A stretch of DNA of 64,000 nt from positions 64,001 to 128,000 of IMG/VR virus record IMGVR_UViG_3300023202_000142. The stretch is one strand, 5' to 3'. Positions 2,149 to 51,660 of this stretch are shown here, one piece after another. A program made the translations under genes and the position numbers. Under the pieces are notes generated by a model that was not told the origin of the DNA, did no database searches, and worked only from the letters and a program-made list of their open reading frames with translations. This DNA is from a virus. Numbering within the stretch: position 1 is the stretch's first letter; each line of letters begins with the position of its first letter.

Positions 2149-3458
2149 GCGGCCTCGGCGCAACCATCGTCTTGCTCCGCCTCTCGTTTCGCCTTGCGGC
2201 GCTCACGCGCCGCCTTGTTGCGGCAGGGGCGGCAGTAGGACTGGGGTTTCGTCCGGTTGTACCGCAGACCAAAGCGCTCATCGACGTTGGCGATTCCGGT
2301 CGCGGTCTCACCGCAGCAGGGGCACTCGGCCTCCATCGGGTCTTCGAGCATCTCCATCACTTCGATCCACGCGGCATCAAATCCGCGACCGGATTTCTCG
2401 GTGACTACTGCCGGGGCGGCGACGAGAAACTCTTCAACAGCCGGGTATCCTTCTCGTCGAGTCCTCAGTTTGACGACGTGGTCTTCAACCTCGCCTCGAC
2501 ATGCAAGTTCCTCGACAACCTCAGCCCGGGAGCCGTCGAAGATCTTCTCGATCTTCCTGCCGGTGTAACCGCGTCGCGTCGCGTCTTTCTTCGAGGGCTT
2601 AAAGACCCGTCGCATCCGATAGACGGCCCAGGGCCGGGCTTCGTCGGTCGACAGTTCTTTGAAGCGCCGCAGCGCCTCGATGTTGCCGGATCGCTCGACC
2701 AGTTCGCGCATCGAACGCGTTTTGAAGAGCTTCATCCGGGGATTGAATCGCAGCGCGATTTCCTCCATCTCCAGGGCCCGGGCAACCTCTTCGGGCTCTT
2801 CCTTCCATCGCGACTGAACTCCACAGTCTGGCCGAGCGAAGGGGCAGAACACGCAGGCCGACTTCCGCCACCGCACTCCGGTAACGCTCTCGATGTAGTC
2901 GACACAGGCAGCACGATCCCAGCCCCAGTCGATCAAGGGGTAGCTGGGCTCACGACCTGGCACGGTTCCGAAGGTCTGGTCCTTCTCGACACGTCGTTCC
3001 TCACCCTTAGCGAAGCCGATGACATGGGTGTAAGGCGCACCATCCAGGAAGCCCTCGATCCATTCATCGAGGACGTACCCCTTGAACTTCAGGCTGCACT
3101 TCCGGGTTCCGCCGGTGGTTGGAATTGTTGCGGCCTCAACCATTTCGTCAGACAGCTTGTAGGCGCCGTCGAGGTGAAGTTCGGTAGGCTCCGTGGAGTC
3201 GTCGAGAACAACGATGCCGTCCGACGTGAATCGGCCGCCCTTGGCGACCTGGACATAACGGATCCCGTGGGCGCGCATGCGCGGGAGTACGTGCTCGCGC
3301 ACGAGCGCGCCCGAGCTGGTGAATTCGTTTCCAGTCATCGACGTAATGACAACCAGTTCGTCGAGCGGACAGGGCCGGGTTTCGGGTTCCTCGATCCAGC
3401 GCAACAGGATGGCTGTGGAGTCGACACCCATGCCGTAGCTGAGTATCACTTGAGTCAT
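2145..3458 (-). CDS. PAPS-reductase-like PP-loop protein with C-terminal Cys4 zinc finger
   Basis: Start reassigned to MTQVILSYGMGVDS (RBS AAGGAGGTAGCG). PP-loop SYGMGVDS, CSLKFK, KSACVFCPF; C-terminal CPCC...YCRPC. Confidence 0.75.
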   Translation of the reverse strand: MTQVILSYGMGVDSTAILLRWIEEPETRPCPLDELVVITSMTGNEFTSSGALVREHVLPRMRAHGIRYVQVAKGGRFTSDGIVVLDDSTEPTELHLDGAYKLSDEMVEAATIPTTGGTRKCSLKFKGYVLDEWIEGFLDGAPYTHVIGFAKGEERRVEKDQTFGTVPGREPSYPLIDWGWDRAACVDYIESVTGVRWRKSACVFCPFARPDCGVQSRWKEEPEEVARALEMEEIALRFNPRMKLFKTRSMRELVERSGNIEALRRFKELSTDEARPWAVYRMRRVFKPSKKDATRRGYTGRKIEKIFDGSRAEVVEELACRGEVEDHVVKLRTRREGYPAVEEFLVAAPAVVTEKSGRGFDAAWIEVMEMLEDPMEAECPCCGETATGIANVDERFGLRYNRTKPQSYCRPCRNKAARERRKAKREAEQDDGCAEAA

Positions 3459-3491
3459 CGCTACCTCCTTTTGTGGGGTCAGTGAGATTGT

Positions 3492-3515
3492 GTGCACAGA
3501 GTGAACTTCAGTCAA
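3492..3515 (-). promoter_or_regulatory. Dyad operator A in a sigma70-like promoter
   Basis: GTGCAC-AGA-GTGAAC at 3492-3506; minus strand TTGACT-N17-CACAAT; lies between divergent genes. Confidence 0.7.
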
Positions 3516-3524
3516 GGAGCAAGC

Positions 3525-3773
3525 ATGTGGGTCCGAAGTGACGCTGAAGGGGTTTTCGAGCTGAGCGAAGTTGACGGGATCTGGATTGACCACGAGGGGT
3601 CTCTGCCGACTCTCTACATCACCAGGCGCAACAGTGGCCGCCCTGTCGCGATGATGAGCCACCGGGACCCAACGGCCCTCTCCGAGGTCAAGAAAGGACT
3701 GGAGAAGGCCCTGGGCGTCCATGAGGGCGCCCACGACATCGCGTCATTCAAGAGCTACGATTATCGCTATTGA
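3525..3773 (+). CDS. Hypothetical protein
   Basis: Start MWVRSDAEG with RBS AAGGAG; 82 aa. Confidence 0.6.
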   Translation: MWVRSDAEGVFELSEVDGIWIDHEGSLPTLYITRRNSGRPVAMMSHRDPTALSEVKKGLEKALGVHEGAHDIASFKSYDYRY

Positions 3774-4239
3774 GACAGTCTTCCGGGGTTACTTCGAGAT
3801 CCCGGAACAGCATGCGGAGAACAGCTTCCGCGGTCGAAGCCCGATTAGCGGCATCACTGATGATTTCCTCGCCCAACTCGGGATTGTCTGAGAAGTGATC
3901 TCGAACCTTCGCCTTGACCTCTTCGGTCATCACGTTGCCAGCCTTCTCGACCAACTCGCCGAGACGTTCTCGGCCGACATCTGCCCAGTTCATCGCGTTC
4001 TTCGAGCCCCTGCCGCTCAATGAGCCGTCCGCGTTAACGGTCAGCCAGCGTTTCGACTTCTGCCATTCTGAGAAGCCACGGCGACCGCAGGTTCGATACT
4101 TCGAGTTGGGGTAGATTCGCACGACATCGTCACCAGCCCAGACGTTCGCATCGAGCCAGCGCGAGTTGTTGCTCGCCCGGTTGAGTGCGACGAGAACTTC
4201 GCCGTGTCGCTTTCGCTCTGCAACGGTCATGTCGGTCAT
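3748..4239 (-). CDS. Hypothetical protein (cassette gene)
   Basis: Start MTDMTVAERK behind RBS CAGGAGGTAGCG. Confidence 0.7.
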   Translation of the reverse strand: MTDMTVAERKRHGEVLVALNRASNNSRWLDANVWAGDDVVRIYPNSKYRTCGRRGFSEWQKSKRWLTVNADGSLSGRGSKNAMNWADVGRERLGELVEKAGNVMTEEVKAKVRDHFSDNPELGEEIISDAANRASTAEAVLRMLFRDLEVTPEDCLNSDNRSS

Positions 4240-4240
4240 C

Positions 4241-4314
4241 GCTACCTCCTGTCGCGGGAGCGGGGTTGGCTCCCTGGTGCATCTTGATGATGTGCACGCA
4301 TTGCACGATGTCAA
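4241..4314 (-). promoter_or_regulatory. Cassette: promoter, operator B, leader hairpin and RBS
   Basis: TTGACA-N16-CATCAT; GTGCAC-GCA-TTGCAC at 4292-4306; hairpin GGGAGC/GCTCCC at 4256-4274 with CAACCCC loop on the mRNA strand. Confidence 0.75.
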
Positions 4315-4318
4315 CGGT

Positions 4319-4708
4319 CTATCTGTTTCGTGCTCGGTTGTTGATGTCTTCCCAGTTGAGACCGTTGAGCAACTCTCTTGCGACCTCACTATCCCTCAAG
4401 GTGTCGCCGAGGGCATCTGTGAGGGCCATCATGGCGTCCTTGCGGGATTCTTCGGTGTAGAGACCACCTGCCATTGCAATTCGGTTGAAGTCGCCTGAGA
4501 GGCGAATGAGGGTGCCCTCAAGGCCATCCGCGCCGACTGCCCTGGCGGCCTTGCTGGCCATGTCCAGCATGTTCCATGCGGACATGGCATCAGCGTTGAG
4601 ATCCGGTCCATCTGGGCCAGCCATTTTGAGGCGCCGCAGTAACCCTGAGCTACCGTATCCCCAGCGATTGAGGATCTCGTCGATTTCGGCTCTGAATGAT
4701 TTCGGCAT
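4319..4708 (-). CDS. Hypothetical protein
   Basis: 129-aa ORF, RBS TAGGAG. Confidence 0.65.
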   Translation of the reverse strand: MPKSFRAEIDEILNRWGYGSSGLLRRLKMAGPDGPDLNADAMSAWNMLDMASKAARAVGADGLEGTLIRLSGDFNRIAMAGGLYTEESRKDAMMALTDALGDTLRDSEVARELLNGLNWEDINNRARNR

Positions 4709-4716
4709 CAGGTCTC

Positions 4717-5046
4717 CTATCGGTCGTATCGAGCCAGTTCGTCAGCCAGCGCTGCCGTTGCCGTTTCGACGGCAACGTGAGCGTCATGCATTCGATCCTC
4801 GAACCCTTCAGCGAGCTTGACGCCTCGCTCGTAGAGATCGGTGTAGGCAGCGGCGTTCTTCACGGCCTCATGGAGGGCGCGACAGGCATCGAACAAGCCG
4901 GGGTTCTCTTCCAGGACCCAGCGGGCAAGAACCCAAACGTTTCGCCAGCCCCACTCCCAGTGGGGCATGGCGCTGAACGCCGCCTCCGAGACGTAGGCGA
5001 CCGCGTTGGTATCCGCAGCCACGGTCATGTTGGTCACTTCGGTCAT
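4717..5046 (-). CDS. Hypothetical protein (cassette gene)
   Basis: Start MTEVTNMTVAA behind RBS GAGGAGGTAGTC. Confidence 0.7.
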   Translation of the reverse strand: MTEVTNMTVAADTNAVAYVSEAAFSAMPHWEWGWRNVWVLARWVLEENPGLFDACRALHEAVKNAAAYTDLYERGVKLAEGFEDRMHDAHVAVETATAALADELARYDR

Positions 5047-5047
5047 G

Positions 5048-5125
5048 ACTACCTCCTCTGAAAACGGGGAGGCGGGGTACCCTCCCCGGGCAAGGACAAT
5101 GTGAACACAGTGCACACACCGTCAA
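5048..5125 (-). promoter_or_regulatory. Cassette: promoter, operator C, leader hairpin and RBS
   Basis: TTGACG -35 at 5120-5125; GTGAAC-ACA-GTGCAC at 5101-5115; 8-bp stem CGGGGAGG/CCTCCCCG at 5065-5088, loop GTACCCCG on the mRNA strand. Confidence 0.75.
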
Positions 5126-5571
5126 GGGACATGCTTCCAGGTTTTTCGTTTAACCAGGTGACTGATCGCCGTGTGGGTCACGCCATATTCCCTACCCAGG
5201 GCCCGGAACGACTCACCCTGGGCAGACCTCTTCCGAATTTCCAGGACATCGTCGGGCGTGAGTTTCGCTGTGTTAACCCTTACACCCTTTGCTGTTCGGC
5301 CCTTCCTGACCGCGTCAAGGCGATTCTCTTTCTGCGTTCCCAACTTCAGGTGAGACGGACGAACGCAAGATGGATTGTCGCAAGTATGCATGATGATCTT
5401 GCCGTCCGGGATGGGCCCGTTCTCCAATTCAAACGACACTCTATGAACGTACTCATTTTTGCCGTTACAGCCGATGTACCCGTAACCAGCAGCATTGCTG
5501 GCACCTTCAAACACCCAGCATTCACCAGATTCATTGACCTTCTCGTAGAGCCTCTCACGTACGTTTGGCAT
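5122..5571 (-). CDS. HNH homing endonuclease with C-terminal HTH
   Basis: CWVFEG...GYG...HRVSFEL...MHTCDNPSCVRPSHLKLGTQKEN is a classic phage HNH pattern. Confidence 0.9.
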   Translation of the reverse strand: MPNVRERLYEKVNESGECWVFEGASNAAGYGYIGCNGKNEYVHRVSFELENGPIPDGKIIMHTCDNPSCVRPSHLKLGTQKENRLDAVRKGRTAKGVRVNTAKLTPDDVLEIRKRSAQGESFRALGREYGVTHTAISHLVKRKTWKHVP

Positions 5572-5596
5572 AGCGCCTCCTCAGCGGGTTACATTG

Positions 5597-6595
5597 TTAC
5601 ATGTTCCACTCAGGAGTCATTTCGTCAAGGTCGACCTCTTCATCAGCTTTGACGGCTTCGAGAACCTCGGCCAACGAGAGGTTCTGTCGAAACGTGTGGT
5701 CGATGCGGTCTTCGACCGCGACGTACTCTTCGAGCAACTCCCGGTTGTGCTTCCCGGCGAGCACCAGGGCTTCCTTGGGGGCGAAGATGCAGAACGCGCA
5801 ACTCAGTCGCGGCATCCCCAGGTCGTAGGCCGGGTGGTGGGGAACGCCGGAGGCCCGAATCGTGGCCCAGACCTCGTGCTCCAGCCAGTGCTGAATCGGC
5901 AGCCAGGAGTCGACGTGCTGATTCGAGTTCGACTTCCGGTTCTCGAACTGGGTCTTCTTGGCGCGAGCCGGGGATTCCTCGGCTCGCAGACCCATGCAGT
6001 CCAGAATCCGGCAAGGACGACAGTCAGCCTTCTCGGGGTTCACCTTGCGCCACTCGCGGGCAAGCTGAGTGAAGACCTTGAGGATCGGACCGCGCTTGAA
6101 CTCCGAAGTGCACCAACGAGCGGCCGACGACGGCCAGGCCCCGCGACGCTCCGCGTAGTCCAGGATGTCTCCGTAGGTCTCACCCTTGGAGTAGGTCTTG
6201 CCGTTAACCTTGCAGATTCCACCGATCCTGGACGTCACGATGAAGGGGCACCCGTAAGCTTTGGCCTGTTCTTCGGCCAGCTCGCCGGTTCCCTCCCATT
6301 CGACTTTGCCGAGATCGGCATGAATGACGACGACGCGATCAGCGATGCCAGCATCTGACGCCAACCCGTGGACGTAGTCGAGCATGGCCTGGGAGTCCTT
6401 CCCGCCGGACGACGACACCGCGATGACATCGTACTCGGTGAGGTCGGGAACGACCCCGGCCTCGAACGACTCACCTGCGAAGCAGCGTTTGCAGTACGTG
6501 GAGGGCTTCTCGCCGCCGTACCGAAGCCCGAAGACCTCCCGGCATTCGTCCTTGGTCTCAGCGCGGACACCGCACTTGGGACACTCGTGGTTCAT
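5597..6595 (-). CDS. PAPS-reductase-family PP-loop protein with N-terminal Cys4 zinc finger
   Basis: SSSGGKDSQA PP-loop, HADLG, WCTSEFKRGPI, GLRAEESPAR, RLSCAFC; N-terminal CPKC...YCKRC. Confidence 0.85.
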   Translation of the reverse strand: MNHECPKCGVRAETKDECREVFGLRYGGEKPSTYCKRCFAGESFEAGVVPDLTEYDVIAVSSSGGKDSQAMLDYVHGLASDAGIADRVVVIHADLGKVEWEGTGELAEEQAKAYGCPFIVTSRIGGICKVNGKTYSKGETYGDILDYAERRGAWPSSAARWCTSEFKRGPILKVFTQLAREWRKVNPEKADCRPCRILDCMGLRAEESPARAKKTQFENRKSNSNQHVDSWLPIQHWLEHEVWATIRASGVPHHPAYDLGMPRLSCAFCIFAPKEALVLAGKHNRELLEEYVAVEDRIDHTFRQNLSLAEVLEAVKADEEVDLDEMTPEWNM

Positions 6596-6596
6596 T

Positions 6597-6676
6597 TGCT
6601 ACCTCCGTTGAGAGAGGGGCGGCGGGGTAACCGCCCCGGAACACTTTCAATTTGTGCACGGAGATCACTCTGACAA
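6597..6676 (-). promoter_or_regulatory. Cassette: promoter, operator D, leader hairpin and RBS
   Basis: TTGTCA -35; GTGCAC-GGA-GATCAC at 6654-6668; stem GGGGCGG/CCGCCCC at 6616-6637, loop TTACCCCG on the mRNA strand; RBS GGAGGTAGCAA. Confidence 0.75.
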
Positions 6677-6696
6677 GGGCTCAAACTCCCCCTGCC

Positions 6697-6722
6697 AAAG
6701 GGCCCCGGGCAACCCGGGGCCC
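6697..6722 (-). terminator. Probable terminator hairpin
   Basis: Perfect GGGCCCCGGG-CAA-CCCGGGGCCC just after the 6728 stop; only a short U tract. Confidence 0.5.
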
Positions 6723-6727
6723 ACTGT

Positions 6728-6919
6728 TCAGCCGTTGACCTCTTCGACCACGGCTTTCGCGAACTCGGTGGGGTGACAGTGTTTGTTGCAGAACCCCATC
6801 TTGTCGAACTTCGACATTTTCATTACGGGGATTTCGTTGGTCGCTACGAAGTGCTCAAGGTCTTTGAAGTCCTCGTCACTCATGGCGTTGGCGGTGCTTA
6901 CGATCTCTTCGACAGTCAT
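6728..6919 (-). CDS. Small hypothetical protein (cassette gene)
   Basis: 63 aa, RBS CAGGAGGTAGCC. Confidence 0.7.
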   Translation of the reverse strand: MTVEEIVSTANAMSDEDFKDLEHFVATNEIPVMKMSKFDKMGFCNKHCHPTEFAKAVVEEVNG

Positions 6920-6920
6920 G

Positions 6921-6999
6921 GCTACCTCCTGTTGGGATTCCGGGCGGTGGGGTTACCGACCCGGCACCCTGAGTATGTGCACAGATCTCACTCCGTCAA
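6921..6999 (-). promoter_or_regulatory. Cassette: promoter, operator E, leader hairpin and RBS
   Basis: TTGACG-N16-CATACT; GTGCAC-AGA-TCTCAC at 6977-6991; bulged stem at 6940-6964 with AACCCC loop on the mRNA strand. Confidence 0.75.
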
Positions 7000-7194
7000 G
7001 GCTTTTCGTAACACATCAATGTCGATGCCCGGCCACCCCGCAACATCGATTGCGCTTTCGACGTCATCAAGCGCGGCTTCGATGATCTCCCAGGCGACGT
7101 CATGGAGCCCGGCAAGCGGTTCGGGCTCCGGCAAGATTGGGCGGGGGATCAGTTTGTCGTACCGGCGAATGTCGAAAAAGTCAGGCTTTGGCAT
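6988..7194 (-). CDS. Hypothetical protein
   Basis: 68 aa, coupled to the groES stop (TAATG). Confidence 0.55.
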   Translation of the reverse strand: MPKPDFFDIRRYDKLIPRPILPEPEPLAGLHDVAWEIIEAALDDVESAIDVAGWPGIDIDVLRKALTE

Positions 7195-7505
7195 TACTCC
7201 ACCAGGGCTTCGATCTCATCGTAGCGGGCGATCACGTGATTGATCCCTTCGATCTCTACCTCGGAGCCGGCCTTCCAGCTCACGACGACTCGATCGCCGA
7301 TCTCAAGGTCGACAGGGTGCCCTTCCTTGCCGGGACCCCTGGCCACCACCACTGCCTCGACGCTGGGGTGTGGCCCCTTGGCCTGGAGTCGCGAGAAATC
7401 CCGCTCATGCTTCTCGTTGAACACGATGAGGCCACTTTCTAGCGTTGTGGTCTCTGCTTTTTCGTCGCGGCGCAAAACGACGCGGTCATACATTGGTTCG
7501 ATCAT
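7194..7505 (-). CDS. groES: Co-chaperonin GroES (Cpn10)
   Basis: MIEPMYDRVVLRR..ETTTLESGLIV...VVARGPG...LEIGDRVV...EVEIEG...EIEALVE matches GroES. Confidence 0.9.
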   Translation of the reverse strand: MIEPMYDRVVLRRDEKAETTTLESGLIVFNEKHERDFSRLQAKGPHPSVEAVVVARGPGKEGHPVDLEIGDRVVVSWKAGSEVEIEGINHVIARYDEIEALVE

Positions 7506-7903
7506 GCGTTCTCCGGGTCAACGAATCGGGTGATGTTGACGACGTAGCCGCCTTGGCTGGGGCGATAGCGTTGCGGGTCACCAACGTCGCGAGCGCGAAC
7601 CTTCCAGCCATCTCCAAGATCTTCCTCAGCCCTGGCGATGGCGGCTTCCTTTGATTCGGATGGCCCCAGGACAAGCAAGATCGTCTTGGTCTGCTGGATC
7701 TTGCCGATTTTGCCGATATCCCGCAGGATGACCTCGCAGTCTTTTCCCTTGCGGTCCAGGTAGTCTTCGGGGAAGTCTTCCATGTCGACCAAGACGTCGA
7801 GGACCGATAGGCCCGAGACCTCATCGACTACTGTCAGTTGGAGCTGGGGCACGCCTGAGCGATCCGCCTCATTCAGCTTGAGCTTACCCTTGAATGTTTC
7901 CAC
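7502..7903 (-). CDS. Hypothetical protein
   Basis: 133 aa, ATGA overlap with groES. Confidence 0.65.
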   Translation of the reverse strand: METFKGKLKLNEADRSGVPQLQLTVVDEVSGLSVLDVLVDMEDFPEDYLDRKGKDCEVILRDIGKIGKIQQTKTILLVLGPSESKEAAIARAEEDLGDGWKVRARDVGDPQRYRPSQGGYVVNITRFVDPENA

Positions 7904-7929
7904 ATCACTTCCGATCTGGTAGACGCCGT

Positions 7930-7958
7930 ACGTTACGTGCGTGCACTACAGGTGTCAA
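7930..7958 (-). promoter_or_regulatory. sigma70-like promoter with one GTGCAC half-site
   Basis: TTGACA-N17-TAACGT on the minus strand; GTGCAC at 7941-7946. Confidence 0.6.
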
Positions 7959-7966
7959 CAGGTACC

Positions 7967-8275
7967 ATGAACGACAAAGACCTTAGATCTCTCCTCGCCG
8001 ACGCCTCTGGCGACCTCTTCGACCTCAAGGCCGAACTCGGTGACGTTATCTACAAGCCCAACCGATGCGCTGTCTACAGGACACCGGGATCCTGGGTTGT
8101 GAAGCTAGTGCTCCGCGGCGCATCCAGACGAGATGAAGTAGACGTCCAGAAGACATTCACGGACGAGTTTCTGTCGGCGTGTATCGAGACGCACGGACCA
8201 GATCTCGCGTTCCAGCTCCTCAAGACGTCGATGCGGAAAATGTTCAGGTCGGAGATCGATCGGGTGATGGCGTAA
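7967..8275 (+). CDS. Hypothetical protein
   Basis: Start MNDKDLRS; 102 aa. Confidence 0.55.
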   Translation: MNDKDLRSLLADASGDLFDLKAELGDVIYKPNRCAVYRTPGSWVVKLVLRGASRRDEVDVQKTFTDEFLSACIETHGPDLAFQLLKTSMRKMFRSEIDRVMA

Positions 8276-8540
8276 CCATTACCTCAACCAGGGCATCCGA
8301 CAAGGTCGTCGCGACCCTCTCTGCCTCTCGTTTCGCCTGATCCTTGTTCAGCGGGGGCATCAAGACCGTTGGTGCGATCTCCAGAGCGTCAGCGATCGCG
8401 TAGAGCGTGGACACCTTGGGGTCACCACCCTCCTCGATGTGGGCGATCGTTGAGTGAGAGACGCCAGCGAGCTTGCCTACAGCGTGCTGGGTCATCCCGC
8501 GATCCATTCTGAGGCCGACCATGGTGTGCGCGAGCTTCAT
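8244..8540 (-). CDS. XRE-family HTH transcriptional regulator
   Basis: LRMDRGMTQHAVGKLAGVSHSTIAHIEEG.DPKVSTLYAIADAL. Confidence 0.9.
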   Translation of the reverse strand: MKLAHTMVGLRMDRGMTQHAVGKLAGVSHSTIAHIEEGGDPKVSTLYAIADALEIAPTVLMPPLNKDQAKREAERVATTLSDALVEVMVTPSPDRSPT

Positions 8541-9028
8541 TTCCCCTCCATCGCAATAAACTCGGCTCGAAGCGACAGGCTCTCTTCATCAAGCTCGATG
8601 CCTCGGTACATATGGCGAAGCTGCTTCTCAGCAGCGTCTGCCCACACCCTGTTGGGCTTGCCGCTCGGTGATTTTCCGCTGCGCCTGTATGAGATCATGG
8701 CCGATTCGATCTTGGTCCTGTAACGCTTATTGAATGTGATAGCCAGCGCCTCATCTTCGCCCAGTTCAAGGATCTGACAGACCCCCTGGAACTTAGCCAG
8801 GACGCAGGGCTCGCCCTTCCTGATGTCGTCGAAACCTATGAATTTCCAGATAAAGAACTTCGTCAGGCTGTTCAGGTCATCGATGCGGTAGCGAACCAGA
8901 CCGCCGCTCGTTTTTGGTGTCCCAGTCTTGTTGCGCAGGGGTTCGAATTTCTCGGCGAGCCAGGCGTTGAAATCCTCGGCGACGCGCTCTCGATGAAGCC
9001 GGCGCTTTCTAGCGTGTTGGTTTTCCAT
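8537..9028 (-). CDS. Hypothetical protein
   Basis: Likely start MENQHARK; operator G (GTGCAC-GCA-GTGTAC, 9029-9043) abuts the ATG. Confidence 0.55.
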   Translation of the reverse strand: MENQHARKRRLHRERVAEDFNAWLAEKFEPLRNKTGTPKTSGGLVRYRIDDLNSLTKFFIWKFIGFDDIRKGEPCVLAKFQGVCQILELGEDEALAITFNKRYRTKIESAMISYRRSGKSPSGKPNRVWADAAEKQLRHMYRGIELDEESLSLRAEFIAMEGK

Positions 9029-9104
9029 GTGCACGCAGTGTACATCGGCCACCCCTTCCGTCAATCCCTGGAGTGTCCTACGATTCCCGGAACCGGAGGT
9101 TCGC

Positions 9105-9788
9105 ATGCCCTACAAGACGACGTCAGACATTCCCCAGCCCGTCCAGGACGCACTTCCAGCGAAGGCCCAGGACATGTGGATGAAGGTCTACAACTCGGCG
9201 AGCAAGCAATACGATGGCGACAAGAGCCGATCTGCGGCAACAGCCTGGGCCGCAGTGAAGCGCAAGTACAAGAAAGGGGAGAACGGAGATTGGGCTCTCA
9301 AGGAAGGACTCATTGAGGCCGTGGACCGCCTCCTGGGCGTAACCAGCGCGCTGCTGCTGCTCTTGCTGCTGTCGGGGTGTGCCTCGGCGCCAGAGCAGAC
9401 TGAATGCCCTGGGGTGCCCCCTGAAGCCGCTTACAGCTTCGAGCTTGTTCGGGTTGTCGACGGTGACACCATTGAGGTCCTCGTGGACATTGGTTTCAAC
9501 ACCTACCGCAAAGTAAGCGCCCGCCTGGACGGAGTCGATACACCTGAGATCTATGGCGTCAAGAAGTGGATGGACGACGCCAAGACGGCCTACACCGAGG
9601 AGTACGCCAGGGGTGCCGCCGCCTCGGAGTTCACGAAGTCGTGGCTTCGGTCTGAATGCCCCTGCACCATTGAGGTCGACGGTGCCGGCAAGTACGGGCG
9701 GTGGATTATCGTGGTTTACTCAGCGAACGGCGCATCGCTTAACGATGCTCTGGTTGAAAGCGGCAACGCTGTCATCGCGGAATACTGA
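9105..9788 (+). CDS. ChaB domain fused to a lipoprotein-type thermonuclease (SNase-like)
   Basis: MPYKTTSDIP...ALPAKAQDMWMKVYNSA...ATAWAAVKRKY is ChaB. Internal LLLLLLLSGC lipobox. VVDGDT, RLDGVDTPE, GKYGR and LNDALVESGNA are SNase motifs. Confidence 0.8.
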   Translation: MPYKTTSDIPQPVQDALPAKAQDMWMKVYNSASKQYDGDKSRSAATAWAAVKRKYKKGENGDWALKEGLIEAVDRLLGVTSALLLLLLLSGCASAPEQTECPGVPPEAAYSFELVRVVDGDTIEVLVDIGFNTYRKVSARLDGVDTPEIYGVKKWMDDAKTAYTEEYARGAAASEFTKSWLRSECPCTIEVDGAGKYGRWIIVVYSANGASLNDALVESGNAVIAEY

Positions 9789-10026
9789 GGTCAACAAACA
9801 CGGGCGTACATGCACCCATGAACGCTCCAACGACATTGTACTCCATCCAGTCAATCGCATCCTCACGATCCCAGTCTTCCCGCTCCATTAAGACCTCGAC
9901 GCATTTGTCGTAGTCGTAAGCGACGACCTCCATCCCGACACGGCGCGCCATGCCGATGATCGCCTTGTCGAGGCCGTCAATGAGGATCGCTTCAGGGTTC
10001 CTTTCCGCGATTTCTTCCTGAGTCAT
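9772..10026 (-). CDS. Conserved phage hypothetical protein
   Basis: DGLDKAIIG...YDYDKCVEVL...A.DWMEYNVVGAFMGACTPVFV, a pattern I recognise from widespread phage hypotheticals. Confidence 0.65.
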   Translation of the reverse strand: MTQEEIAERNPEAILIDGLDKAIIGMARRVGMEVVAYDYDKCVEVLMEREDWDREDAIDWMEYNVVGAFMGACTPVFVDLSIPR

Positions 10027-10297
10027 AGTCGTTCGCGTCCGCAAAGAAGTGTACAACGCCGCCTTCGTAGTCGTATCCAAGACCGTATATCACTTTCACG
10101 AGAGTCTTGAATCCGGTGTTACCGCCGGCCTCGATGCGGTCCAGGGTGTGGACGTGTACGCCGGCGTCGCTTGCTAGGTCCACGCGTGTCTTGCTGGTCA
10201 GGTCTCGCTCGTGCCGAATGAAATCACCGACCTGGACAAGGACGTCATCGCTGGATAACTTGTGCACTCTGTTCACCCGTTCGTCAAGGTGCTCCAT
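9992..10297 (-). CDS. XRE-family HTH protein
   Basis: IRHERDLTSKTRVDLASDAGVHVHTLDRIEAGGNTGFKTLVKVIYGLG. Confidence 0.8.
   Translation of the reverse strand: MEHLDERVNRVHKLSSDDVLVQVGDFIRHERDLTSKTRVDLASDAGVHVHTLDRIEAGGNTGFKTLVKVIYGLGYDYEGGVVHFFADANDYDSGRNRGKEP
10262..10276. promoter_or_regulatory. Dyad operator H
   Basis: GTGCAC-TCT-GTTCAC inside the 5' end of the XRE gene, 20 nt before the divergent HTH-like gene. Confidence 0.6.
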
Positions 10298-10625
10298 GGA
10301 AATTATCGACCTAATGTCTCGTGAGGAACTGGCAGACCGAGTCGGCCTTTCGCCTGGCTATGTCGCGAGATGCGCGCGGGAGGAACGGTTTCCTGGCCAC
10401 CGGTTCTTTATCTATCGGACCCGAGCCAAAGACAAGTGGTTCCACCACTACGCTGCCGTTGATTTCGGCGAGCAGGGGCTGTGGGGGTGGCTGAAGGTCC
10501 AGGGTGTGGACGAAGCTGCTCGCACGCTGAAGATAGAGCGGTTTGCTTTCACCCGGGCGCTGAGGGAGGGAGATCCGGCCTTACTCAGGCAGATCCGGGG
10601 GCACCTGAATCCGCTGAACCGCTGA
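10296..10625 (+). CDS. Putative HTH DNA-binding protein
   Basis: MSREELADRVGLSPGYVARC is HTH-like; its start overlaps the divergent start codon (CCATGG). Confidence 0.5.
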   Translation: MEIIDLMSREELADRVGLSPGYVARCAREERFPGHRFFIYRTRAKDKWFHHYAAVDFGEQGLWGWLKVQGVDEAARTLKIERFAFTRALREGDPALLRQIRGHLNPLNR

Positions 10626-10860
10626 ATTGGTCTCGGACACGAGCTTCCGCAAAGTCCTCAGCGATGTGCTCATGCATGCCAGCCGTAATGAAGGCCGCGG
10701 TGAGCATATGAAAGGTCATTTTGGCCCGGAAGCTGTTGTCGGTCCGCACATCCTCGACAGGGGTCGCACCCGGGTGCAGTTGTACCTGCAGCGTTTGAGT
10801 TGGGGCCTTTCGTCGTAGTTCACGACCCTGTCTTCGTAGTTCTTGGTAGTCGATGTTCAT
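10585..10860 (-). CDS. Hypothetical protein
   Basis: 91 aa, ATGA overlap with the recombinase stop. Confidence 0.55.
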   Translation of the reverse strand: MNIDYQELRRQGRELRRKAPTQTLQVQLHPGATPVEDVRTDNSFRAKMTFHMLTAAFITAGMHEHIAEDFAEARVRDQFSGSADSGAPGSA

Positions 10861-11531
10861 TCTTCGATGAGACGTTTGACCTGTGTGGGGTGAAACGGCT
10901 TCCCTTTGCGATTTTTCAAGCCGAAGTGAGCCATGGCGCGCGAGATCGATCGGAGCGAGCCCCCTTCTTTTCTGAGCTGCCGCGCAGTTCGGATGGCCTT
11001 CTGTTCGGCCGGATCTTCTATGAGATTGACCCCGTCATCGTCAAGGGCGTACCCGTAGGGGGTTCCGCCACCCGTATACTCTCCACGTGCGCGCTTGCGC
11101 TCCAGCGCTTTGGCGGTCCGCTCCCCAATCACTTTTCGCTCCCACTGCGAGATCGCGATGAGAACGTTGAGTACCAGTTCGCCGGTGGCCGTGCTGGTGT
11201 CGATTTGCTCAGAGATCGAAACGAGCCTGAACTGAGACTCGAAGTAATTCTCCAAAAGGATCGCGAAGTCCTTGACCGAGCGTGTCAGCCGATCGAGTTT
11301 GGCGACGATAACACCGTCGACGTCGCCTGATTTTTTGAGCCGCGTGAGCATTGCTTCCAGCCCCTCCCGGTTCAGGGTCGAGCCGGACACGCCCGCGTCC
11401 ACTTCAACACCGATCAGGTCGTGCTCGAATAGTTTACAGTAGGACCTGATTCGTTCCTCTTGGGCCTCGATGCCTAGCCCAGACTCAGCCTGGGCTTCGG
11501 TCGACACCCGAATGTATCCGATGAGTCTCAT
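10857..11531 (-). CDS. Serine recombinase (resolvase/invertase family)
   Basis: IGYIRVSTEAQ (catalytic Ser), DAGVSG...REGL, VAKLDRLTRS, ERKVIGERT, TPYGY and a C-terminal HTH. Confidence 0.92.
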   Translation of the reverse strand: MRLIGYIRVSTEAQAESGLGIEAQEERIRSYCKLFEHDLIGVEVDAGVSGSTLNREGLEAMLTRLKKSGDVDGVIVAKLDRLTRSVKDFAILLENYFESQFRLVSISEQIDTSTATGELVLNVLIAISQWERKVIGERTAKALERKRARGEYTGGGTPYGYALDDDGVNLIEDPAEQKAIRTARQLRKEGGSLRSISRAMAHFGLKNRKGKPFHPTQVKRLIEE

Positions 11532-11540
11532 CGTGACCTC

Positions 11541-11849
11541 CTATCCAGAACACTTGAGTGCCAGACGGACATCCGATCCGGTGTCTTCGAGGACCACGGC
11601 GAAGGAGTTCCGCGAGGCGAAGCGCCGCCCGGTGTCGGGCGAGACGTTAACAACTCGGAACGAGTAGAGGACCTTGTGAGTGCCGACGCTGTAGAAGAGT
11701 CGACCGCGATCAGCATCTATCTCACTGGCGCAAGCGTCAGAGCCGACGACGAGAGTATCGCCTGCGGAGCGAACGCCGTGAACCCGGTGGGCGAGCCCGA
11801 GCGCTTCGAGCGCTTCGGAAAGAGGGACTGCTTCATCGAACCGTGCCAT
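11541..11849 (-). CDS. Hypothetical protein (cassette gene)
   Basis: 102 aa, RBS CAGGAGGTAGCAA. Confidence 0.7.
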   Translation of the reverse strand: MARFDEAVPLSEALEALGLAHRVHGVRSAGDTLVVGSDACASEIDADRGRLFYSVGTHKVLYSFRVVNVSPDTGRRFASRNSFAVVLEDTGSDVRLALKCSG

Positions 11850-11850
11850 T

Positions 11851-11929
11851 TGCTACCTCCTGGTGAGTGGGAAGGCGGGGTGCCCTTCCCGGTGCATCGA
11901 CAATATGTGCACGCCGTGCACAGTGTCAA
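11851..11929 (-). promoter_or_regulatory. Cassette: promoter, perfect operator I, leader hairpin and RBS
   Basis: TTGACA-N16-CATATT; T-GTGCAC-GCC-GTGCAC-A at 11906-11922; stem GGGAAGG/CCTTCCC at 11869-11890, loop GCACCCCG on the mRNA strand. Confidence 0.8.
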
Positions 11930-12242: not shown

Positions 12243-12637
12243 GCGATCTCGTGCTCAGTGGTGCGTCGAACGCTTTCGCGTGCTGCGCGGTGCGCGACAC
12301 CGGAATCACCGGAAGACTCCATTACGGCCCGAAAGGTCCTTAGCCACAACAGCTTCATCTCCTGGGGTAGAGTTTCCAGATCTTCTGGTAGATCTGCCTG
12401 GAGCTGTCGCTCTTCGAAATGCTCTACTCTATTGTAGAGGACCTTCAGGCGCGCGTCCGATCGAGCGCGTTTGACCTCGCACACATCGTCCATCATGGAG
12501 CCCTTTCGGCCGGCCTTGATGACGTAGATGCGATCCTCCAGGAACGCAACAATGCGCTCCATGAGACGTTCATTGTTCTTCTCATCGCTCCAGTCGGCCA
12601 GTTCGACCAAATCGTCTACGGTTTCTCTTCGGATCAT
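12230..12637 (-). CDS. Hypothetical protein
   Basis: Start MIRRETVDD with RBS CAGGAG. Confidence 0.6.
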   Translation of the reverse strand: MIRRETVDDLVELADWSDEKNNERLMERIVAFLEDRIYVIKAGRKGSMMDDVCEVKRARSDARLKVLYNRVEHFEERQLQADLPEDLETLPQEMKLLWLRTFRAVMESSGDSGVAHRAARESVRRTTEHEIAQPT

Positions 12638-12660
12638 GCTGTCTCCTGTGAAGGGCACCA

Positions 12661-12687
12661 TTATGTGCACTCACGTCACACTGTCAA
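12661..12687 (-). promoter_or_regulatory. Promoter with operator J
   Basis: TTGACA-N16-CATAAT; GTGCAC-TCA-CGTCAC at 12665-12679. Confidence 0.7.
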
Positions 12688-13828: not shown

Positions 13829-14056
13829 GCCGTGTCCCCTTCGAATGATTACCGGAGGCTCGAAGGGCTCTTCCGGCTCGGAGTCTTCGTCACCGCCTGA
13901 GCGTGTCGACCCCAACAACTCCTCGCGGTTAATTGGAATTTCCTTGGGCGCAACGATGCCGATTCGGACCTGACTTCGACGAATCTCGCGCACTTCGATG
14001 GTGATGTCGTCGCCAACCTGGATTCGTTCGCCGACTTTGCGGGTGAGGGTAAGCAT
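13823..14056 (-). CDS. csrA: Carbon storage regulator CsrA/RsmA homolog
   Basis: MLTLTRKVGERIQVGDDITIEV..I..SQVRIGIVAPKEIPINREEL is the CsrA signature. Confidence 0.95.
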   Translation of the reverse strand: MLTLTRKVGERIQVGDDITIEVREIRRSQVRIGIVAPKEIPINREELLGSTRSGGDEDSEPEEPFEPPVIIRRGHGK

Positions 14057-14594: not shown

Positions 14595-14888
14595 GTGGAC
14601 ACAGACAAAAATTCGGCGCGTAAGGAAGCTCTGGGGTTTGAGAGGGGATTCGGCCGCACCATTGGACCAAGCCCCCTCGTGGAGAGGGTTGACGCCCTCC
14701 TGGAGAACTTCACGGTCGTCTCGAAGGTTGCGGTGAACATTCCCAAGGCGGTGCGAACAGGTCAGACGCTTGACCCTGTCGATGACGTCCGGGCTGACTA
14801 CACCAAGTACCGCAAGCTGCACTTCTCGAAACGGAAGTGCCCGCCAGAGTGCCCCTTCTGCAAGAGAGCCAAGAAGAATGCTCGTTGA
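14595..14888 (+). CDS. Hypothetical protein
   Basis: 97 aa, GTG start, C-terminal CPPECPFC. Confidence 0.55.
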   Translation: MDTDKNSARKEALGFERGFGRTIGPSPLVERVDALLENFTVVSKVAVNIPKAVRTGQTLDPVDDVRADYTKYRKLHFSKRKCPPECPFCKRAKKNAR

Positions 14889-25136: not shown

Positions 25137-25188
25137 GTGAAGGCTGTGCACTTTTTACCTTGACGGTTGTGAAGCTCGTGCATAAGGT
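25137..25188 (+). promoter_or_regulatory. Promoter with tandem operators M1 and M2
   Basis: GTGAAG-GCT-GTGCAC at 25137-25151; TTGACG(25160)-N17-TAAGGT; GTGAAG-CTC-GTGCAT at 25169-25183. Confidence 0.7.
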
Positions 25189-25194
25189 CTCAGT

Positions 25195-25496
25195 AACGGA
25201 CAGGGACTCAACGCTTCCCATCCTGTCCGGGTTTTGGCCCTTCGGGGCATCGAGTCAGGAGTTGCGTATCTGCGGGAAGAAATGATGAGAGTCTGTAGAG
25301 GGTTAAATCGCTGCATCTTTTCCTTCCGGCCAGCCTTGGCCTTAAAGGGTGCGATGCTACCTCCCCCTTGAAGATCAGACTGGAGTCTCAGGAGCAGCTC
25401 GCCCCTGGACAGGGCCGGACTAACGGGTAGGGGTATCCGCCGTCCCGCGAGCAAACTAGACCCGTCGCCTGCTGGACAGGCGGCGGGTCTTTGTTT
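25195..25496 (+). ncRNA. Putative structured non-coding RNA (about 300 nt)
   Basis: Own promoter and terminator, no credible ORF. Stems CGGACAGG/CCTGTCCG, GCCC-TTCG-GGGC, AGTCTG/CAGACT, ATCGC/GCGAT and CGGGTA-GGGG-TATCCG; G-U pairs favour the plus strand. Confidence 0.6.
25458..25496 (+). terminator. Rho-independent terminator
   Basis: AGACCCGTCGCCTG-CTGGA-CAGGCGGCGGGTCT followed by TTGTTT. Confidence 0.75.
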
Positions 25497-25507
25497 ACAC
25501 ATTTCAC

Positions 25508-51511: not shown

Positions 51512-51533
51512 GCCTGTTGCCCCGGGCGGGGCA

Positions 51534-51565
51534 TTGATAATGTGTGCACGGATTGCACATTGTCA
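51534..51565. promoter_or_regulatory. Palindromic promoter-like element with operator O
   Basis: TTGATAATGTG...CACATTGTCAA inverted repeat (10/11 match) enclosing GTGCAC-GGA-TTGCAC at 51544-51558. Confidence 0.65.
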
Positions 51566-51660
51566 AGCCCCGGGGGCCAGGTTTCACCCATAGTCTGCAA
51601 TCCGGCAGACGTACCGACTCAGACTCGTTGTTGCCTCTGGCGCCACGATGTCCGAGACTT

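Follow-up and report, generated by a model that had tools for sequence, protein, structure and literature searches.

About 26 small early genes of an uncultured phage appear from their upstream regions to be driven from copies of a single promoter–operator–leader cassette. We consider it a real, if tentative, prospect that these cassettes are self-contained modules for early accessory genes, in which the pentamer ACCCC and a tag at the ribosome-binding site form a two-part address for a phage RNA.

The source record is a 185,324-bp uncultured virus with 59% GC (40.7% AT), of which the window, the whole 64,000-nucleotide stretch analyzed, is a part. It carries T4-type genes for the portal, prohead protease and major capsid protein (Pfam Portal_T4, 1.7e-52; Peptidase_S77; Gp23, 3.6e-63), and the relatives of the major capsid protein are T4-like phages. 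On gene content we assign the phage to the T4-type myoviruses, and its lifestyle looks lytic and T4-like. A CsrA homologue is encoded at 13910–14056.

Anatomy of the cassettes

A sequence-only reading of the window had placed six cassettes on the minus strand, ahead of the ATG codons at 3458, 4239, 5046, 6595, 6919 and 11849. All of them were found there, with the order of elements that it had described: TTGAC(N), the dyad GTGCAC-N3-GTGCAC, CAnAnT, a hairpin, the tag GGAGGTAG, two to three nucleotides and ATG. The family exceeds these six, comprising 27 promoters, 26 tagged starts and 16 hairpins genome-wide. The cassettes and related elements of the window are the following.

3456–3515, minus: cassette 1, promoter with dyad and 17-nt spacer, ATG 3458; short leader without stem, ACCCC 3475–3479, tag GGAGGTAG 3461–3468; precedes a 437-aa ORF
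4237–4314, minus: cassette 2, promoter–dyad, ATG 4239; hairpin 4247–4281 with 6-bp stem and loop ACCCC 4262–4266, tag 4242–4249; precedes a 163-aa ORFan
5044–5125, minus: cassette 3, promoter with degenerate dyad, ATG 5046; hairpin 5059–5093 with 8-bp stem, ACCCC 5074–5078, tag 5049–5056
6593–6676, minus: cassette 4, promoter with TTGTC as −35, ATG 6595; hairpin 6609–6643 with 7–8 bp, ACCCC 6624–6628, tag 6599–6606; precedes the gene of a 332-aa PAPS-reductase-like protein
6917–6999, minus: cassette 5, promoter–dyad, ATG 6919; hairpin 6934–6968 with 8 bp and a bulged T, ACCCC 6949–6953, tag 6922–6929; precedes a 63-aa ORFan
11847–11929, minus: cassette 6, consensus promoter–dyad, ATG 11849; hairpin 11862–11896 with 7 bp, ACCCC 11877–11881, tag 11853–11860
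12635–12687, minus: promoter-only family copy, TTGACA, 16 nt, CATAAT with dyad; short leader with ordinary Shine–Dalgarno sequence, without hairpin or tag
51538–51566, minus: promoter–dyad copy without tag or ACCCC hairpin, oriented into the major capsid gene at its 3′ end
25160–25188, plus: variant family promoter, TTGACG, 17 nt, TAAGGT, with GTGAAG/GTGCAT boxes
25195–25497, plus: candidate non-coding RNA of ~300 nt, preceded by the variant promoter and ending in a hairpin and T-run terminator

Five cassette-driven proteins gave no match in a Pfam scan (0/5); the PAPS-reductase-like product of the gene at 6595 was identified separately from that scan. Tagged genes form clusters at 3–31, 52–54, 67–76 and 168–182 kb of the genome, and the genome-wide count of the tag found none among replication and structural genes.

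The first part of the cassette would be a promoter of the housekeeping-sigma type, in which TTGAC and CAnAnT are separated by 16 nt (27 copies genome-wide). A promoter scan independently called the −35 and −10 elements at this spacing. The 25 nt upstream of the promoters contain 40.9% AT compared with 40.7% in the genome, and thus no AT-rich upstream element. As second part, a dyad of 15–17 bp would fill the spacer and extend to the −10 element; most likely, a single regulator binds there and switches the entire set. In cluster A phages, the dispersed sites of one repressor are known as stoperators. The C1 repressor of phage P1 has 22 dispersed operators (PMC8546580). The dyad resembles both in that many copies of a short site occur genome-wide and coincide with promoters, but unlike them it keeps a single fixed register within the spacer of the promoter. 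The transcript probably starts within a conserved GTGC. The stem-loop begins about 10–12 nt past the −10 element, 3–7 nt past the predicted transcription start, and therefore lies inside the predicted transcript.

A co-varying hairpin with a constant loop

As third part, the transcript would fold immediately into a 6–9-bp hairpin with a G-rich 5′ arm and a C-rich 3′ arm. The five stems quoted in the sequence-only reading do pair, the one upstream of 6919 with a bulged T, and ACCCC is found in each of the five loops; the leader of 3458 contains ACCCC and lacks the stem, as had been noted. A covariance model of the hairpin, the check that had been proposed, retrieved 16 copies from the 185-kb genome at E ≤ 0.0083, while the next match had E = 0.77. 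All 16 lie directly behind a family promoter, and the genome contains no further copy. In an arm-swap permutation test with 14 non-redundant copies, native arms folded at −14.6 kcal/mol and chimeric arms at −11.3 kcal/mol, a difference of 3.3 that was reached in 0 of 100,000 permutations. In a fixed-register alignment, 81% of the cells were paired compared with 71% after shuffling, and the covariation score was 0.337 compared with 0.181 in shuffles (0/500). The stems co-vary and the loop is constant; a folded single strand is therefore under selection, in agreement with what the compensatory stems and fixed loop had been taken to indicate. Of the hairpin, just its pairing and the ACCCC letters of the loop would be retained. 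The conserved part of the loop comprises just 5 nt, and the predicted probability of ACCCC being unpaired is P = 0.92 across the 16 leaders, compared with 0.56 ± 0.29 at 150 random ACCCC sites.

The structure had been proposed to form in RNA or single-stranded DNA. Selection for folding held, but the type of strand was not separated: folding is equally good on the sense and on the antisense strand (−14.4 and −14.6 kcal/mol), so that G–U pairs are no proof of an RNA over a DNA hairpin. Equal folding would also fit a DNA-level element, in which the inverted repeat would extrude from single-stranded or supercoiled DNA to form a hairpin or cruciform that serves recombination or replication proteins; for the GGGG...CCCC stems of PeSL (promoter-early-stem-loop) cassettes, a DNA-binding recombination protein has been the subject of speculation (PMC2839356). 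With all 16 copies fixed in orientation and distance relative to promoter and Shine–Dalgarno sequence, and with the loop motif tied to a tag on the sense strand, such an element appears highly improbable.

The hairpins do not fit an intrinsic (Rho-independent) terminator, since a T-run is missing after 15 of the 16 hairpins (only cassette 3 has TTTT) and the terminator scan called none of them. A search of the whole window against Rfam 15 at gathering score gave no match.

The hairpin may additionally shield the 5′ end of the mRNA. Protection of mRNAs by 5′ stem-loops is established in E. coli and B. subtilis, and both the start of the hairpin a few nucleotides into the predicted transcript and its stability (−9 to −21 kcal/mol) would suit an element that is a 5′-terminal stabilizer and nothing else. 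It would act against 5′-end-dependent RNases, like the ompA leader, or against exonucleases in read-through transcripts, and ACCCC would serve loop stability or ribosome standby. We regard this restricted role as quite unlikely, because fixed loop letters are not needed for it, ACCCC is to our knowledge not a known stable loop motif, and ACCCC occurs with the tag also in stem-less leaders, including internal start sites, where no 5′ end lies.

Apparently exchangeable modules resembling PeSL cassettes

Two pairs of cassettes are near-identical inside the cassette (78/80 and 58/60 positions) and unrelated outside, where the flanks are at random level; cassette 6 has a near-identical counterpart at genome position 14859. 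To judge by this pattern, the cassettes seem to behave as exchangeable modules. With regard to the hyperplastic regions of PeSL (promoter-early-stem-loop) phages, the features seen, in this genome alone, are clustering of the cassettes and an identity that is confined to the cassette before unrelated genes.

The sequence-only reading had named PeSLs as the known analogue, and this comparison held for the T4-type phage and, to judge by this genome, for the exchangeable modules, but not for the position of the stem-loop, the T-run and the AT tract. PeSLs have been described in the T4-type phages RB49/phi1, T4/PST and KVP40/nt-1; in these, the stem-loop precedes, overlaps or is contained in the promoter and reaches no further than the position just ahead of the start site. 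It terminates transcription, and the −35 element has an AT-rich tract in front of it (PMC2839356, PMC4122927). Shared features are the T4-type myovirus, repeated cassettes of ~80–100 bp that combine a repeated, predicted sigma-70-type early promoter, a G-tract/C-tract stem-loop and Shine–Dalgarno sequence with ATG, and the concentration among small accessory ORFs, where identical cassettes here also precede unrelated genes. Unlike in PeSLs, the stem-loop is always downstream of −10, no AT-rich tract precedes the promoter, the pentamer in the loop does not vary, a conserved dyad occupies the spacer, the Shine–Dalgarno sequence has a private extension matched by a candidate trans RNA, and the genome has 59% GC. 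Membership among PeSLs is not supported, given the stem-loop within the predicted transcript, the missing T-run (15/16) and the missing AT-rich tract; the cassettes are PeSL-like, not PeSLs.

True PeSL behavior would imply that the stem-loop terminates or attenuates transcription coming in from cassettes upstream, that promoter and stem-loop together mainly provide homology for the shuffling of accessory genes, and that ACCCC is kept by gene conversion among the copies. This would be in line with the T4-type phage, G-tract then C-tract stems that resemble RB49/phi1 stem-loops (PMC2839356), clustering among small ORFans, near-identical pairs ahead of unrelated genes, and the lack of a separate upstream terminator at most cassettes. 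We nevertheless think it unlikely: a hairpin within its own transcript would attenuate the cassette's own gene, and T-runs (15/16 copies) and AT-rich tract are absent. Furthermore, conversion alone leaves unexplained why the stems have diverged but ACCCC has stayed the same, and ACCCC accompanies the tag even where the stem is absent. As carriers of a two-part address, the uniform cassettes would double as recombination substrates, as in PeSLs.

A private Shine–Dalgarno tag linked to ACCCC

The fourth part would be a private extension of the Shine–Dalgarno sequence, GGAGGTAGC. The extended form GGAGGTAG(C) was found at 26 start sites genome-wide; in the window, GGAGGTAG was observed 7 times, the expectation being 1.2, and none of 100 shuffles gave as many. 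ACCCC lies ≤30 nt upstream of 21/26 tagged starts, compared with 4/49 untagged GGAGG starts and a background of 4.4% per interval searched. With the established anti-Shine–Dalgarno sequence as reference, the tag diverges from the 16S complement past GGAGGT, and it matches the RNA candidate exactly over 9 nt. The nearest complete relative whose sequence was gone through from end to end uses another private start tag, and an antisense copy is absent, which counts against the proposed address.

In Cluster K mycobacteriophages, start-associated sequences (SAS) of 13 bp and extended SAS (ESAS), inverted repeats of 17 bp that are conserved in sequence and show no compensatory change, have been described (PMC3203893). 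There, as here, a private conserved motif stands a few bases before the start codon in a subset of genes, and about half of the motif genes also have an upstream inverted repeat at a variable spacer. The ESAS arms are conserved in sequence, not compensatory, and thus support no mRNA hairpin. Their carriers, unlike the present phage, are siphoviruses of mycobacteria, and the motifs have different sequences and no attached promoter. Membership in this system was ruled out by the differing tag sequence and by arms that here vary and compensate, so that the resemblance is functional only.

A candidate antisense RNA

In antisense orientation the tag occurs just once in the genome, within the promoter- and terminator-bounded segment 25195–25497, whose sole long ORF (115 aa) is on the opposite strand and lacks a ribosome-binding site. 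The exact complement of the tag is at 25356–25364 and is mostly unpaired in the predicted ensemble; GGGGU follows at 25430–25434 in a small hairpin, and order and orientation of these elements match an mRNA reading 5′ ACCCC ... tag 3′. The segment is a candidate two-site antisense partner with 9-nt exact complementarity to the tag and 5-nt complementarity to the loop. For the 5′ arm plus loop, the best pairing site was the GGGGU hairpin (RNA positions 234/235–253) in 10/16 leaders and elsewhere in the 303-nt RNA in 6/16; the nucleotide immediately 5′ of ACCCC does not follow the RNA. Leader–RNA pairing averaged −20.6 kcal/mol compared with −17.7 ± 1.4 kcal/mol for shuffled RNA, of which 6/200 were as good (p ~0.03). 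By our estimate, GGGGU arises by chance ~0.5 times per 300 nt at the same composition, and the link between loop and RNA therefore rests on order, context and this p value. An added layer of ligand recognition had been suggested in the sequence-only reading, and by its complementarity this RNA is a candidate for the ligand. We infer both its production and the direction of its effect.

Alternatively, the loop might be read by a protein, either an antiterminator of the N/boxB type, loaded at every early promoter, or a translational regulator of the phage, and the complementarity would be incidental. A fixed-loop hairpin just downstream of many early promoters has the geometry of the lambda nut boxB, and the phage encodes RNA-binding regulators such as the CsrA homologue. 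However, CsrA reads GGA, not ACCCC, and GGA in the hairpins sits in the paired arms; neither a boxA-like second element nor an N-like protein was identified, and an exact 9-nt antisense tag in a promoter- and terminator-bounded RNA is hard to dismiss. A protein reader thus appears decidedly improbable.

Capture by an RNA has a parallel in the c4 RNA of P1/P7, a 77-base processed RNA that represses ant, its one target operon, by two-site antisense control (PMC8546580 and references therein). In both cases a trans-acting phage RNA would use two short complementary elements, one of which covers the ribosome-binding site of the target. The ~300-nt candidate differs from c4 in that it would act on about 25 leaders scattered over the genome, one of its two target elements being presented by a hairpin loop. 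RNA 25195–25497 showed no relation to c4, either in sequence or through Rfam.

Proposed mechanism and implications

In the proposed mechanism, the hairpin would keep ACCCC single-stranded as a seed, and the RNA would dock onto the loop and cover the ribosome-binding site, by which about 25 early messages would be turned down or destabilized jointly. With greater reserve, we put forward as a possibility that one mobile cassette gives rise to a two-layer regulon, in which the dyad would mark ~27 units for one DNA-binding regulator, and ACCCC with the Shine–Dalgarno extension would mark ~25 messages for capture by one RNA from a promoter of the same family. If so, the early genes would bear their own delayed shut-off, and any gene acquiring the cassette would enter the programme.

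The timing of early genes in T4-like phages is thought to run via modification of the host polymerase and nucleases such as RegB, and PeSLs have so far been viewed mainly as recombination patches. The cassette adds a conserved putative operator inside the promoter and an mRNA address, made of loop and private Shine–Dalgarno extension, which a phage RNA could read if the proposal is true. Its parts are short and modular and thus suited to reporter constructs. If true, the proposal would show a large lytic phage controlling en bloc dozens of accessory genes that are unrelated and freely exchanged, and it would provide a testable function for the 'start-associated' motifs that have been unexplained since their description in mycobacteriophages.

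Anatomy and distribution of the cassettes

The minus-strand reading of the window bore out all six promoter-operator-leader cassettes that a sequence-only reading had placed at starts 3458, 4239, 5046, 6595, 6919 and 11849, as well as their internal order: TTGAC(N), the dyad GTGCAC-N3-GTGCAC, a –10 element of the form CAnAnT, a hairpin about 10 bases on, GGAGGTAG and ATG. The final C of the dyad is the first base of the –10 element. A generic promoter scan calls the cassette promoters with a spacer of 16 nt, except for the 3515 copy with 17 nt. The five stems quoted by that reading pair as claimed (the 6919 stem with one bulged T), ACCCC is present in each hairpin loop of the window, and the 3458 leader indeed carries ACCCC and the extended Shine–Dalgarno (SD) tag in the absence of a stem. 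The tag GGAGGTAG occurs seven times in the window versus 1.2 expected, a number reached in 0/100 shuffles.

A pattern search of the whole record revealed 27 promoter copies, 26 starts with GGAGGTAG and 16 ACCCC-hairpin leaders. The family occupies five genome blocks (~3–31, 52–54, 67–77, 168–175 and 180–182 kb), and its copies always share the orientation of the genes they precede. When a covariance model was derived from the hairpins, as the sequence-only reading had proposed, it recovered exactly these 16 copies in the genome (E ≤ 0.0083; next match E = 0.77), demonstrating that the hairpin never occurs without the promoter. The promoter was found without the hairpin in about ten cases. No tagged starts were present among replication and structural genes. 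Five cassette-driven proteins were scanned against Pfam and none gave a match; the sixth, encoded behind cassette 4, is PAPS-reductase-like and has homologues at 74–77% identity. Two genes located between cassettes, one for an HNH endonuclease and one for a Cpn10-like protein, have no cassette themselves. The following additional features were located:

5122–5571, minus strand: HNH_3 homing-type endonuclease, between two cassettes and adjoining the PAPS-reductase-like gene
6697–6722, minus strand: separate GC-rich hairpin followed by TTT, between a 63-aa gene and cassette 4
7194–7505, minus strand: Cpn10/GroES-like gene, just upstream of cassette 5
51515–51566 (genome position 115.5 kb), minus strand: extra promoter–dyad copy, directed antisense into the major capsid gene at its 3′ end

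The hairpin at 6697–6722 indicates that a conventional terminator coexists with the leader hairpin. The promoter copy at 51515–51566 crosses the GC-rich terminator hairpin of the capsid gene and could yield antisense RNA to this late gene early in infection. Another promoter–dyad copy (locus L252:12900–13007, minus strand, genome position ~180707) has no SD; its place is taken by nested GC-rich hairpins spanning about 80 nt.

Selection on the leader hairpin

All 16 copies fold with the loop motif forced open, yielding core stems of 6–9 bp and energies of –9 to –21 kcal/mol, and at least 11 distinct stem sequences are represented. When the 3′ halves were swapped among the 14 non-redundant copies, folding weakened from –14.6 to –11.3 kcal/mol, and the native mean was reached in 0/100,000 re-pairings. 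In a fixed-register model alignment, which under-counts pairing because the stems occupy three registers, 81% of cells pair (71% in shuffled alignments) and the covariation score is 0.337 versus 0.181, with 0/500 shuffles as high. The unslid register scored best of seven. The three registers also account for the poor consensus returned by RNAalifold on the ungapped alignment. Covarying arms, chimera folding and shuffles thus support the selected folded structure that the sequence-only reading had inferred. Fourteen copies have ACCCC in the loop, one has GCCCC and one ACCC; the two or three bases that precede this motif within the loop are variable. The predicted ensemble leaves ACCCC unpaired with a probability of 0.92, compared to 0.56 ± 0.29 for random ACCCC sites. 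Reverse complements of the hairpins fold just as well (–14.6 versus –14.4 kcal/mol). We therefore rejected the argument from G–U asymmetry that the structure must be RNA: folding energy discriminates neither RNA from DNA nor between the two strands, and the strand assignment of the hairpin rests on its fixed position between promoter and SD.

Linkage of loop and tag, and a candidate partner RNA

In 21/26 tagged starts, ACCCC occurs no more than 30 nt upstream, compared with only 4/49 untagged GGAGG starts (background 4.4% per 30-nt window). It also precedes tagged internal genes that lack both promoter and stem. This co-occurrence indicates that the conserved single-stranded information of the leader is bipartite, consisting of ACCCC and GGAGGTAGC. 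Compared with the established 3′-end sequence of 16S rRNA, the tag matches the universal anti-SD complement up to GGAGGT only and then departs from it, so that ribosome pairing does not explain the extension.

What might read the loop? A ligand-recognition layer had been suggested from the sequence-only reading, and the phage encodes a homologue of the RNA-binding regulator CsrA:

13910–14056, minus strand: CsrA homologue (Pfam CsrA, 1.6e-20)

This gene is located about 2 kb from the cassette block, and GGA, the motif read by CsrA, is present in every tagged SD. As a reader of the loop, CsrA was rejected on motif grounds, since a GGA-reading specificity does not fit ACCCC. No RegB homologue was found in the phage, in a search that gave no signal in control genomes either.

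The most likely reader, in our view with moderate confidence, would be an RNA of the phage itself, whose putative locus comprises the following elements:

25160–25188, plus strand: variant promoter of the cassette family, before the candidate RNA
25195–25497, plus strand: candidate RNA
25356–25364, plus strand: the genome's sole antisense copy of the tag
~25459–25497, plus strand: strong hairpin and T-run terminator, at the end of the candidate RNA

No credible ORF was found in the segment. From 5′ to 3′, the candidate RNA carries the tag complement and, 66 nt on, GGGGU (a motif expected by chance about once per 600 nt on its own), which is the order needed for antiparallel pairing with 5′ ACCCC ... 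tag 3′. In the predicted ensemble the tag complement is largely unpaired and GGGGU lies within a small hairpin. This hairpin was the best site in the 303-nt RNA for the 5′ arm plus loop of 10/16 leaders; for the other six the best site lay elsewhere. The GGGGU hairpin is C-rich on its 3′ side, which also matches the G-rich leader arms. Leader–RNA pairing averaged –20.6 kcal/mol versus –17.7 ± 1.4 kcal/mol for shuffled RNA, with 6/200 shuffles as good; duplexfold energies on long sequences are not meaningful and were disregarded.

The dyad as a putative operator

The dyad GTGCAC-N3-GTGCAC could form a 6-bp hairpin at the position where most stem-loops of the promoter-early stem-loop (PeSL) cassettes of T4-type phages sit. 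We rejected such a hairpin, since the second box is almost invariant and never compensates the first-box variants (GTGCAA, GTGA..). The uncompensated variants point to a sequence-specific site on double-stranded DNA, and the dyad is most simply read as an operator overlapping the –10 element. A metagenome scan mostly returned the TTGAC-N3-dyad architecture before an unrelated toxin–antitoxin-like pair in soil bacteria of several phyla, including Verrucomicrobia, Acidobacteria and others:

L069:297–1074; L133, L105, L111 and ~45 other metagenome loci; L354–L366 in MAGs: toxin–antitoxin-like two-gene module

Of the two proteins, the first begins with MSTAYVSGRVP and the second resembles PIN proteins. 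Their genes lie behind TTGAC-N3-GTGCAC-N3-GTGCAC, with an almost leaderless start; as the promoter-operator architecture is the same as in the phage cassettes, such a dyad can evidently work as an operator inside the spacer. The phage has no homologue of the antitoxin-like protein, and our search for a binder of the dyad in this phage yielded no candidate.

Phage affiliation and search for relatives

The virus record, of which the window covers bases 64001–128000, is a single sequence of 185,324 bp with 59% GC. Among its genes are those for a portal of the T4 type (Pfam Portal_T4, 1.7e-52), a prohead protease resembling gp21 and a major capsid protein of the gp23 type (Pfam, 3.6e-63). By its capsid, it is related to T4-like phages at 25–34% identity. 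These genes place the phage among the T4-like myoviruses, as a distant member that is uncultured and rich in GC. No copy of the T4 late-promoter motif TATAAATA occurs anywhere in the 185-kb genome, and the phage's late transcription signals must therefore differ from those of T4.

The region had no DNA-level match in 50,697 phage records (megablast and blastn). The exact promoter pattern gave no match in viral contigs and 75 matches in genome contigs, all single and by chance. The ACCCC-plus-tag pattern gave 108 single matches in viral contigs, approximately the estimated chance number; translated ORFs of three of these loci had no match in the phage genome, and other tag-rich loci appeared unrelated on inspection. 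A search for relatives by nhmmer with the candidate RNA as query returned no match, and a 19-nt exact match in an Undibacterium genome was rejected as chance. Searches for relatives via capsid, PAPS-reductase and helicase proteins went no higher than 58% full-length capsid identity; the closest reachable kin were several complete genomes of 186–198 kb with ~48% capsid identity and a 9.7-kb fragment whose capsid end is 94% identical. None of the kin found in this way showed dyad or tag above control level. One complete relative examined in full (G002, 191,623 bp, loci L344–L353) uses a different private start tag, AGGAGAAGGAG, whose 10-mer core occurs in 22 copies on one strand only, with no antisense copy. 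It also contains a 12-bp core, GCAGTCGACTGC, in 21 dispersed copies, most of them extending to the 14-bp palindrome GGCAGTCGACTGCC, and a second palindrome, TTTCACGTGAAA, at five sites. Given the kin without dyad or tag and the differing tag of G002, the cassette architecture appears lineage-specific as far as can be seen.

Comparison with PeSLs and proposed mechanism

PeSLs, found in T4-type phages, combine promoter and terminator in a single motif that comprises an AT-rich tract, a sigma-70-like promoter, a G-tract/C-tract stem-loop and SD-ATG. Their stem-loop may precede the promoter, sit within or across it, or come directly ahead of the start site, and PeSLs are enriched in hyperplastic regions, where recombination shuffles ORFans (PMC2839356, PMC4122927). 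The analogy to PeSLs drawn by the sequence-only reading is apt with respect to phage group, promoter, G/C stem composition, SD-ATG, clustering among ORFans and apparent exchange of whole cassettes. For instance, the cassettes at genome positions 3157 and 168182 agree at 78/80 positions and the pair at 14859 and 75929 at 58/60, while flanks and downstream genes are unrelated in both pairs. Membership, however, fails: unlike in PeSLs, the stem-loop is constantly inside the predicted transcript, only 1/16 hairpins has the T-run of a terminator, and there is no AT-rich tract (40.9% AT in the 25 nt upstream versus 40.7% genome-wide). What the phage adds is an invariant loop, a putative operator dyad and a private tag with a candidate antisense partner. 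We thus filed the cassettes as working partly like PeSLs without being members. A second close analogue is provided by the SAS/ESAS motifs of Cluster K, whose repeats are not compensatory (PMC3203893).

The sequence itself demonstrates the anatomy, the loop–tag linkage, the covariation and the complementarity; the transcription start, the RNA, the direction of its effect and a binder at the dyad are inferred. We propose that host RNA polymerase would start at the cassettes early in infection, at the predicted start site, and that a regulator at the dyad would set or end the early phase. Each message would open with a hairpin that displays ACCCC and may protect the 5′ end beforehand. The candidate phage RNA, transcribed from a related promoter, would accumulate, seed on the loop, then open the G-rich arm and cover the tagged ribosome-binding site. 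Early messages may also be destabilised, and translation of about 25 early genes would drop together.
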